Position numbers and translations under genes: made by a program. Under the pieces are notes generated by a model. It was given only the letters and a program-made list of their open reading frames with translations. It made no database searches and was not told where the DNA came from. Shown here piece by piece: positions 37,723 through 39,337 of a stretch of 64,000 bases of DNA. Source of the DNA: Escherichia coli. Lineage in GTDB: Bacteria; Pseudomonadota; Gammaproteobacteria; Enterobacterales; Enterobacteriaceae. Location: NCBI RefSeq assembly GCF_002854065.1, contig NZ_CP024147.1. One strand, written 5' to 3'. Each line of letters begins with the position of its first letter. Within the stretch, counting starts at the first letter, position 1.

Positions 37723-37792
37723 TCAATTTGACCAGATTAACGCCTGGGGGAGTTTTCCAGATATCATCAAAAGTTGATGCGCAGGAGAACGC

Positions 37793-38245
37793 ATGATCTG
37801 GATAATGCTTGCCACCGTCGTGGTGGTGTTTGTGGTTGGTTTTCGGGTTCTGACGTCAGGCACCCGACGGGCGATTCGCCGTTTAAGCGAACGACTTAAT
37901 ATTGATGTTGTACCCGTAGAATCGATGATCGATCAGATGGGTAAAATGCCTGGTAAAGAGTTTTTGTATTATTTGCATCGCCCGGATGAATCTCATCTGC
38001 AAAATGCTGCTCAGGTGTTACTTATCTGGCAAATTGTGATTGTCGATGGTAGTGAGCAGAACCTGTTACGTTGGCATCGGTTGTTGCAAAAAGCGCGTCT
38101 TGCTGCGCCGATCACGGATGCCCAGGTCCGTCAGGCGCTGGGTTTACTCCGTGAGTTAGAGCCAGATATGCAGGAGATTAATGCCTTCCAAATGCGCTAT
38201 AACGCCCTCTTCCAGCCAGAAGAAGGCGTGTTTTGGTTGCATTAA
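37793..38245 (+). CDS. 150-aa protein with a single N-terminal TM helix; resembles what I recall of YicN (DUF1198)
   Basis: MIWIMLATVVVVFVVGFRVL hydrophobic start; length equals YicN; identity not verifiable here. Confidence 0.45.
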   Translation: MIWIMLATVVVVFVVGFRVLTSGTRRAIRRLSERLNIDVVPVESMIDQMGKMPGKEFLYYLHRPDESHLQNAAQVLLIWQIVIVDGSEQNLLRWHRLLQKARLAAPITDAQVRQALGLLRELEPDMQEINAFQMRYNALFQPEEGVFWLH

Positions 38246-38263
38246 CTCAATGTGAGTGGCCTG

Positions 38264-39337
38264 TCAGAACCAAGCTTCCCACATCGCGCCAAGGTTAAAG
38301 TCGTCAAGCGTTTCCTCTTTTGTACCGTTGACGCGTGCAGTCCGGTCATTATCAACTTGCCCGCCCGTCATGTAGAAACGTAGCATTGGGCGGAATTCCG
38401 GGCCCATCGCAATAGAAATGTTCTGTGACAGCGTCAGCTTCCAGCCGGAATTATCTCCGCCTTTATCATAATCAACCCGCTGATAACCCGCCTCAAGCCA
38501 GGTGGAGTGAACGTCATTCCAGAAATACATAGGACGGACAATTACGCCATAGTTTTTGCGGTTATCACTCTTAATAGAACTGTTGTCGTAATCATGGAAG
38601 GCTAGTAAATACTCGATTTGCGCCTGCTGGGTAAATTTATGACTACCTTCAAAACTGGCGTAAATTGTCGTGAGATCGTCAGTTTTATTGTAAACACTGT
38701 TATCGGAATTATCAGAGTAGCGGGCAATGACTTTATTCACTCCGCTGTCATTGCTATGGCTTACAACAAATGCCCCCTGCCAGGCTTTCAGTTTGTCTTC
38801 ACCTTCGACCGCTTTTGAGTCGAAGCCGTAGTTAGCGTACAACTCAAGATCCAGTGGCCCCAGTTTCATACCATGAATTTTGGACGTTATCGCATAATTG
38901 CCTTTGTCGCCCGTTCCTGACCCGCCAGTACAGGTAATGCGTGATGGATTGGTCTCATCCTCCATCACTTCAGGATTACAGGATTCAACCGCTGCGACAG
39001 TAGCAAGGTCAAACTTGATGCCACCAATGTCGAAATTTTTCACCCCGGCACCCTGACCATCGTGAGTCATCCAGAAGTAGTCATTAATGCCCTGTTGCGG
39101 GCGCTGGTGGAAGTCACGACCAGCCCAGATATAGGCGTCAGGATTGGATGCCAAAACATTGGTGACACCAGCGTAGGCTTTTTTCAGGTTAACTTCGTCG
39201 CCCCAGTGATCAATCATGACATTGACATCCCAGATTGCGCCGTTATCGCTCTTGAAGGCTTTTGATAACTGAAACTCTCCGCCATTACCTTCGTTCCCCA
39301 GACGACCAATTGCAGATGCACCATTATAGGAGCCGTC
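38264..39337 (-). pseudogene. LamB-family sugar porin (maltoporin / BglH / ScrY-like), 5'-truncated at the IS1 boundary; C-terminal about 358 codons remain
   Basis: Reading frame open from the IS1 edge to the stop; C-terminus ...FNLGAMWEAWF with aromatic terminal residue and LamB-like GxxxRPMYxW block; no N-terminal signal peptide because upstream is IS1. Confidence 0.65.

Follow-up and report, generated by a model that had tools for sequence, protein, structure and literature searches.

A truncated sugar-uptake island downstream of uhpT in Escherichia coli and the IS1 that cuts it

What occupies the place of the adenine genes beside uhpT in this Escherichia coli genome, and how did it come to be there? 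Inspection of the K-12 gene order (yicS-nepI-yicN-adeQ-adeD-uhpT, yicO being the same gene as adeQ) shows that the arrangement yicN-adeQ(yicO)-adeD-uhpT expected in an earlier note on this DNA is correct. In the window, the whole stretch of 64,000 nucleotides analysed here, the earlier note had found neither ade nor yicO after uhpT, and tblastn across the 64 kb bears this out, as none of AdeD, true AdeQ, NepI, and the N-terminus of the porin described below is encoded in it. The AdeQ query retrieved the paralogue AdeP alone. Two explanations had been offered, namely a gene complement peculiar to this lineage or a deletion that accompanied an IS1-associated rearrangement. The features concerned are the following:

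36285 to 37676, plus strand: uhpT, intact 463-aa ORF, context gene
37695 to 37723, plus strand: intrinsic terminator of uhpT with its T-run, the last sequence in common with K-12
37793 to 38245, plus strand: DUF1198 gene, a second yicN-like copy of 150 aa, intact, at the end of the island
38264 to 39337, minus strand: 3' remnant of a LamB-family porin gene (codons 103-459 and stop), abutting IS1
39338 to 40105, minus strand: complete IS1 of 768 bp, its IRR adjoining the porin and its IRL adjoining tnaA
39353 to 39856, minus strand: insB, 167 aa
39775 to 40050, minus strand: insA, 91 aa
40106 to 41475, plus strand: tnaA remnant, beginning at nucleotide 47 by alignment to the intact tnaA of strain 100416
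51178 to 51945: second IS1 copy, identical to the one at 39338-40105

The window is very close to E. coli strain 100416, from which it differs by 22 SNPs and no indels over 62.5 kb. Strain 100416, whose record is NZ_CM128593.1, comes from human stool (Gambia). The uhpT gene is 100% identical to the one annotated as uhpT in that strain and is followed by a terminator made of a GC-rich 7-bp stem (37695-37713) and a T-run, TTTTTTTATT. In the alignment to K-12, homology stops at ...GGGCTTTTTTTATT and the window continues with CAATTTGACC..., placing the left junction of the island between positions 37723 and 37724, with island-specific sequence from 37724 onwards.

The first gene beyond this junction belongs to the DUF1198/YicN family, since its product matches the Pfam profile PF06711 from end to end (242 bits, E=2.5e-72, model positions 1-143 of 143); the E-values of this match and of the LamB match of the neighboring porin (3.6e-69) exclude chance. 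In strains 100416 and CUWW06, it is annotated as WP_032281862.1, “DUF1198 family protein”. The description of this ORF as YicN-like in the earlier note therefore stands, whereas its equation with yicN itself (b3663 in K-12) does not: the protein shares 87% amino acid identity (about 79% at the nucleotide level) with the true YicN of strain 100416 and K-12, and intact relatives carry the true yicN, located after adeQ, in addition to the DUF1198 gene beside uhpT. Like K-12 YicN, it has 150 aa, the DUF1198 domain, and an N-terminal hydrophobic segment; in contrast with it, the window gene is an island-borne second copy located beside uhpT and not after adeQ. It is best annotated as a DUF1198/YicN-like paralogue, the name yicN being inappropriate. 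YicN of K-12, a protein of ~15 kDa, crosses the inner membrane once and is co-purified with SecYEG; no function is known for it (PMC8082313).

The second frame (357 codons and a stop) converges on the DUF1198 gene and belongs to the LamB porin family, with a score of 235 bits against Pfam PF02264 that is well above the gathering cut-off of 25.1 (model positions 25-378 of 378). It is 100% identical to nucleotides 307-1380 of the intact gene of strain 100416, whose 459-aa product is annotated as “carbohydrate porin” in relatives, and it ends exactly at IS1, in agreement with the earlier reading of a LamB-family porin cut by this element. Codons 1-102 are lost and IS1 lies upstream, so that the promoter, start codon, signal peptide, and N-terminal extension are all gone; the remnant is consequently a dead pseudogene and should be treated as such in annotation. 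The question of whether the porin is BglH or ScrY, also raised previously, receives the answer that it is not BglH and not recognizably ScrY. K-12 BglH gives only short local matches (26–34% identity, 38 bits at best), and phmmer, run at E<=1e-3 against the PDB, which includes ScrY structures, retrieved three maltoporin sequences alone, the nearest solved structures (E about 1e-13). Maltoporin LamB proper was rejected as well, since the intact 459-aa protein reaches 132.9 bits against a cut-off of 394 and 25.3 against 765 (NCBIfam NF006860 and NF009061, respectively), and the fragment alone 123.9 against 394. The closest relatives of the N-terminal part found by homology search are 75–85% identical and occur in Klebsiella, Raoultella, Leclercia, and Serratia. 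The intact porin carries a signal peptide and, ahead of the barrel, an Ala/Glu/Lys-rich N-terminal extension of ~55 residues. This extension is reminiscent of ScrY. As judged from these comparisons of sequences, the porin is a separate LamB-family subfamily.

Together, the DUF1198 gene and the porin fragment form the left end of an accessory island of 6.98 kb that is intact in strains 100416 and 06-00048. Its gene order there is yicN-like DUF1198, porin, PTS IIA, GH1 hydrolase, PTS IIC, PTS IIB, LacI-type regulator, and a 3' fragment of yicS, and to its right intact carriers have adeD, adeQ, true yicN, a RelE/HTH pair, nepI, and iatC. Compared with K-12, the island is an insertion of 6,979 bp in the T-run of the terminator shared by the convergent uhpT and adeD genes, where a 15-bp overlap was mapped at the insertion point; at its right junction, a yicS sequence 81% identical to that of K-12 runs directly into the stop codon of adeD, which becomes TGA instead of TAA. 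The DUF1198 gene and the porin follow uhpT in 26 of the 5,426 complete RefSeq E. coli genomes (about 0.5%), and in 5,410 the match is confined to the first 75 query bases, corresponding to the end of uhpT and the terminator. A gene complement particular to this lineage, the first of the two explanations offered, is thus upheld. The arrangement yicN'-cluster-yicS' mirrors the yicN-nepI-yicS order of K-12, with the sugar cluster replacing nepI. Moreover, in more divergent Escherichia genomes, which are not part of the RefSeq E. coli set, the order is yicL-yicS-LacI-IIB-IIC-GH1-IIA-porin-DUF1198-(adeD)-uhpT, and the cluster lies between a full yicS and the sole yicN homologue. This position suggests that the E. 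coli carriers probably took up the cluster along with the flanking genes of the donor.

Concerning the sugar that the island handled, PTS IIC belongs to the lactose/cellobiose family (367.4 bits for a TIGR00410 cut-off of 236), IIA and IIB have this family as best match with scores below the cut-offs, and the GH1 enzyme best matches GH1 beta-glucosidases or phospho-beta-galactosidases. No island component reached a substrate-specific (equivalog) cut-off in this profile test that would point to a particular sugar. We found nothing specific to this island in the literature; it is a rare, already annotated, accessory island and no new kind of element.

The element that cuts the porin has the characteristic IS1 ends, GGTAATGACTCC... 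and ...GGCAGCATCACC, in addition to the insA and insB frames. Apart from the two IS1 copies and a single orientation switch at 39338-40105, the window and strain 100416 are colinear and correspond as follows:

Window 1 to 39337: strain 100416 from 5,080,154 through the record origin to 38,807
Window 40106 to 51180: strain 100416 from 5,073,204 down to 5,062,130, in the opposite direction
Window 51946 to 64000: strain 100416 from 5,061,614 down to 5,049,560, after the second IS1

Therefore, the tnaA side runs opposite to the uhp side in chromosomal direction, which excludes a plain deletion between uhpT and tnaA: IS1 joins, in inverted orientation, two points ~47 kb apart. A simple IS1 insertion was rejected on the same grounds and also because the target duplication of 8–9 bp is missing, no 9-bp direct repeat being found across the element (left flank GGAGCCGTC, right flank TTGAGCCTG). 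The tnaA remnant lacks its first 46 nucleotides together with tnaC and the promoter, and tnaB and mdtL lie beyond. tnaA is thus inactivated, and from this truncation the strain is predicted to be indole-negative. The truncated 436-aa TnaA ORF is not specific to this lineage, and other IS elements are found at the tnaA 5' end in many lineages. Our literature search on tnaA and IS1 in Shigella yielded nothing specific, and an Rfam scan of positions 36000-40300 gave one chance sub-threshold match only.

Strain 100416 carries an IS1 at a telling place, 19.2 kb past the porin breakpoint between a truncated iatC and nlpA. It is arranged as iatC'-IRR-IS1-IRL followed after 46 bp by nlpA, points the same way as the window copy, with IRR facing uhpT, and differs from it by 1 nucleotide. 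The window copy is, in turn, identical to both junction copies of the complete genome CUWW06, annotated there as IS1B-family. These two CUWW06 copies are inverted relative to each other and lie in the arrangements porin'-IS1(-)-tnaB'-mdtL and nlpA-IS1(+)-toxin'-IS2-toxin'-mnmE...dnaA. The second shares with strain 100416 the junction of IRL with GATCTTGCCATTATAG... leading to nlpA and has a toxin-gene fragment on its IRR side; this common junction indicates that the CUWW06 element is the old copy or its replicate. The earlier note had placed the missing porin 5' half at the reciprocal IS1 junction elsewhere in the genome, an expectation that fails in CUWW06: the reciprocal junction joins nlpA, IS1, and the toxin fragment, and the porin 5'/IIA DNA, present in 26 genomes, is absent from the whole CUWW06 genome. 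The adeD-adeQ-yicN segment occurs in 5,418 of the 5,426 complete genomes and scores 100% in strain 100416 and 99.5% in the runner-up, but CUWW06, though near-identical to strain 100416, is not among the best 40 of these 5,418 matches.

Other relatives add further states of the same locus. A single-contig NCTC long-read chromosome of 4.74 Mb (assembly GCA_900449015.1) also shows the porin-IS1 junction, connected there to tnaA, where the break falls after nucleotide 13; it falls after nucleotide 46 in the window and at the tnaB 3' end, 2.6 kb further, in CUWW06. The window has thus lost 33 bp more of tnaA than the NCTC chromosome, and CUWW06 has lost 216 bp more of the porin than the window. Since the CUWW06 junctions lie at different nucleotides, deeper in the porin and in tnaB rather than tnaA, they could conceivably reflect independent events in that strain. 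A 97-kb draft contig that extends 58 kb past the start of the window ends in IS1 at the porin; its length and position indicate a genome that probably has no IS at tnaA, which suggests that the deletion preceded the inversion. The exact porin/IS1 junction occurs in none of the 5,426 complete RefSeq E. coli genomes, whereas the truncated 317-aa porin C-terminal ORF is found in 198 blocks of a public collection. For the other half of the gene, exact-protein look-ups of the ORFs predicted to read from porin codons 1-105 into IS1, which depend on gene calling and on the assumed duplication length (9 or 8 bp), retrieved no record, and the 15 of 22 listed members of the cluster of N-terminal porin fragments are contig-edge, frameshift, or nonsense forms only, none of them fused to IS1. 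Exact-protein look-ups with MnmE alleles, GH1, a ShET2-like toxin, and NlpA returned un-rearranged relatives only. The NCTC chromosome is missing from these results, a gap for which indel errors in its predicted proteins are the probable cause.

We consider that a deletion followed by an inversion best accounts for these observations, and would give this history a probability of roughly 70%. Judging from the relatives, an IS1-adjacent deletion would have started at the IRR end of the iatC/nlpA IS1 and reached porin codon 102 (nucleotide 306), eliminating positions 38,808-58,019 of the 100416 coordinates, about 19.2 kb. Such a deletion would have removed porin codons 1-102, the IIA, GH1, IIC, IIB, and LacI genes, the yicS fragment, adeD, adeQ (yicO), the true yicN, the RelE/HTH pair, nepI, and the iatC remnant. 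The same product may alternatively have arisen if the element recombined with a transient copy in the porin (porin::IS1). Subsequently, an IS1-mediated inversion, visible in the sister genomes and through one of its junctions in the window, joined the IRL end to the tnaA 5' end, producing porin3'-IS1-tnaA3' and a predicted reciprocal nlpA-IS1-tnaA5'. Small further IS1-adjacent deletions then eroded the flanks, as the staggered breakpoints of the close relatives show. Adjacent deletion and homologous recombination between IS1 copies have identical products, as do replicative inversion and recombination with an independent tnaA::IS1. Intramolecular transposition of IS1 is known to cause both adjacent deletions, by attack in cis, and inversions, by attack in trans (PMC9330008). 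Comparison of the relatives makes the ~19.2-kb loss the best explanation for the missing ade and yicO and supports the IS1-associated deletion that had been proposed, so that both alternatives of the earlier note appear to be true together. For the genome of the window itself, the sister genomes and the negative look-ups suggest that ade and yicO have probably been lost from it altogether.

Three other interpretations deserve consideration. Independent IS1 copies in the porin and in tnaA could have recombined with each other and inverted the segment, and the reciprocal junction would then still carry the porin 5' half together with the PTS genes, ade, and yicO. The opposite direction of the two IS1 flanks and the lack of target duplication are exactly what such an inversion predicts, and the window itself displays one junction only. 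We nevertheless regard it as unlikely, given that the reciprocal junction in CUWW06 carries nlpA, through an IS1-nlpA junction already present in strain 100416, instead of the porin 5' half, that this genome is devoid of both the porin 5'/IIA DNA and a near-identical adeD-adeQ-yicN segment, and that no chimeric ORF of the porin N-terminus and IS1 is on record against the 198 blocks with the C-terminal one. An assembly error that joined porin, IS1, and tnaA in a genome truly colinear with strain 100416 is far less credible still. IS1 is indeed a multi-copy repeat of 768 bp, inside which the short-read contigs of the relatives all stop, but the independent NCTC chromosome has the same join with a slightly different tnaA breakpoint, CUWW06 possesses a matching pair of reciprocal junctions in a complete genome, and the breakpoints coincide exactly with the IS1 ends.

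The remaining interpretation concerns the origin of the island and not its fate: the DUF1198 gene and the porin after uhpT might be ancestral in E. coli and have been lost from K-12-like strains, rather than imported. Carriers whose flanks differ by up to 3% have identical island junctions, which implies that the arrangement is old or spreads by flanking homology, and a related gene order exists in other Escherichia genomes. However, K-12, >99% of E. coli, and divergent Escherichia genomes all have adeD next to uhpT with a single terminator serving both; the island holds extra copies of yicS (truncated) and of yicN in carriers that keep the normal ones; and, in more divergent Escherichia, the island genes are 98–99% identical to those of the window where the core flanks (uhpBC) are 94–96% identical. 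An ancestral origin therefore seems improbable, and we favor import of the island followed, in the lineage of the window, by the IS1-driven deletion and inversion.

Under this deletion-then-inversion history, the near-identical genomes might be arranged as successive stages in the activity of one IS1, from strain 100416 through the drafts with the porin-IS1 junction only to the NCTC chromosome, the window, and CUWW06, with a 19-kb deletion, a ~47-kb inversion, and base-by-base erosion, and with loss of the sugar island, adenine salvage, and indole production. The clone may in that case be starting a Shigella-like reduction. To this tentative reading as a whole we give somewhat less than even odds. 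The ~47-kb inversion, within one replichore, would in addition flip dnaA-dnaN-recF-gyrB with respect to the replication fork. If true, these genomes would record IS-driven reductive evolution as a natural time series of good resolution, with no new mechanism involved. If the proposed deletion holds, the strain would be devoid of adenine deaminase and AdeQ. The locus is in any case ordinary IS-driven genome decay, the product of classical IS1 activity already known in kind; it illustrates clearly how one IS1 may, in succession, cause deletion, inversion, and erosion close to the replication origin (dnaA), and its IS1 junctions could be used to tell lineages of the clone apart. Its significance beyond the lineage is small, and the damaged island copy is ill-suited for studying the substrate of the PTS, GH1, and porin proteins or the role of DUF1198.

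The components of this locus all resemble known systems. As in the lactose/cellobiose PTS operons of the cel, chb, and lac types, the island has separate IIA, IIB, and IIC proteins clustered with a GH1 enzyme and a repressor, but its regulator is LacI-type, it has its own LamB-type porin, and its proteins stay below every equivalog cut-off. The porin shares with LamB, ScrY, and BglH a full-length Pfam LamB domain and a predicted role as an outer-membrane sugar channel beside sugar-uptake genes, and departs from them by missing the NCBIfam LamB cut-off, by its local identity of 26% to BglH, and by the lack of a detectable match to ScrY. IS1 adjacent deletions and inversions are widespread in Shigella and other IS-rich E. 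coli. The history proposed here would reproduce the hallmarks of such IS1/Tn9-type events, including one fixed IS end with the neighboring DNA lost or flipped, a deletion beginning exactly at the IS terminus, an inversion leaving two inverted copies, the lack of target duplication across a single copy, and successive erosion in close relatives. It would differ from them in no respect of kind, what is specific being the loci affected, namely the sugar island, adeD/adeQ, tnaA, and the flipped dnaA-gyrB segment.

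The window differs from strain 100416 (NZ_CM128593.1; Gambia, human stool, 5.08 Mb), its near-identical relative with an intact island, by only 22 SNPs and no indels over 62.5 kb. The features considered here, in the window and in sequence records of relatives (L-numbers), are the following.

Window 29518-32565: pair of long ORFs (435 aa and 490 aa) between ilvN and uhpA
Window about 37460-37723: UhpU region
Window 40106-41475: tnaA remnant, lacking the first 46 nt, tnaC and the promoter
Window 40106, L005 9079-9113 and L004 10241: IS1-tnaA breakpoint, compared among relatives
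Window 51178-51945: second IS1, identical to the first, with flanks 48908-51177 and 51946 onward
L003 28946-31117 and L042 18180-20853: ShET2/EspL2-family toxin gene region
L068 8949-15568 (NZ_CP100500.1, strain LH50-c): island at an alternative site, adjoining an S6-family protease gene

Because tnaA has lost its first 46 nt together with tnaC and the promoter, the strain is predicted from sequence to be indole-negative. The same residual ORF of 436 aa recurs across many unrelated lineages whose tnaA 5′ ends carry different IS elements, a pattern suggesting that tnaA has been inactivated repeatedly. Among near-identical genomes, the breakpoint between IS1 and tnaA varies, lying after nt 13, after nt 46, or in the tnaB 3′ end, and these differing breakpoints form a natural series of IS1-adjacent erosion. 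On the porin side, the IS1 junction is common to the window, the single-contig NCTC chromosome and draft contigs, and in the complete sister genome CUWW06 it lies 216 bp deeper. The clone carries a gene for a type III effector toxin of the ShET2/EspL2 family between tnaC and mnmE; in CUWW06 this gene is interrupted by IS2 and has also been cut short by IS1. The IS2 insertion is probably shared by the lineage of the window, since a 44-kb draft contig stops at the position of this element in CUWW06.

Comparison with strain 100416 shows that the second IS1 of the window replaces 515 bp, with the loss of the promoter and first 139 nt of a 2.4-kb gene annotated as “type III effector” and also of the beginning of an adjacent hypothetical gene. 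A further 1.7 kb is gone on the same side of this site in CUWW06. In clonal relatives, the chromosome measures 4.65-4.74 Mb and bears additional damage from IS1 and IS2, a hint that genome reduction is still in progress in the clone. The two long ORFs separating ilvN from uhpA, genes that are adjacent in K-12, had no Pfam match and are annotated as hypothetical in relatives; their called lengths differ between genomes and one of them is frameshifted in CUWW06.

The island has moved within a larger piece of DNA at least once, since in LH50-c it lies at a different chromosomal site, accompanied by the yicS fragment and by a 183-nt adeD remnant. The LH50-c porin is a mosaic, its 5′ end being 98% identical to the type found in the window and its 3′ two-thirds only 79%. 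In another genome, the porin type found in the window is shortened to 221 aa in P0127, a public protein from a 4.85-Mb contig, and ends just before the Cys that comes next in the intact porin. We read this as a nonsense mutation, in which case the porin of that genome would have been inactivated independently and by a different route.

In the K-12 annotation, the uhpT 3′ end and terminator are covered by a small RNA, UhpU; since the island starts only immediately 3′ of this terminator, the UhpU region is unchanged in the window.
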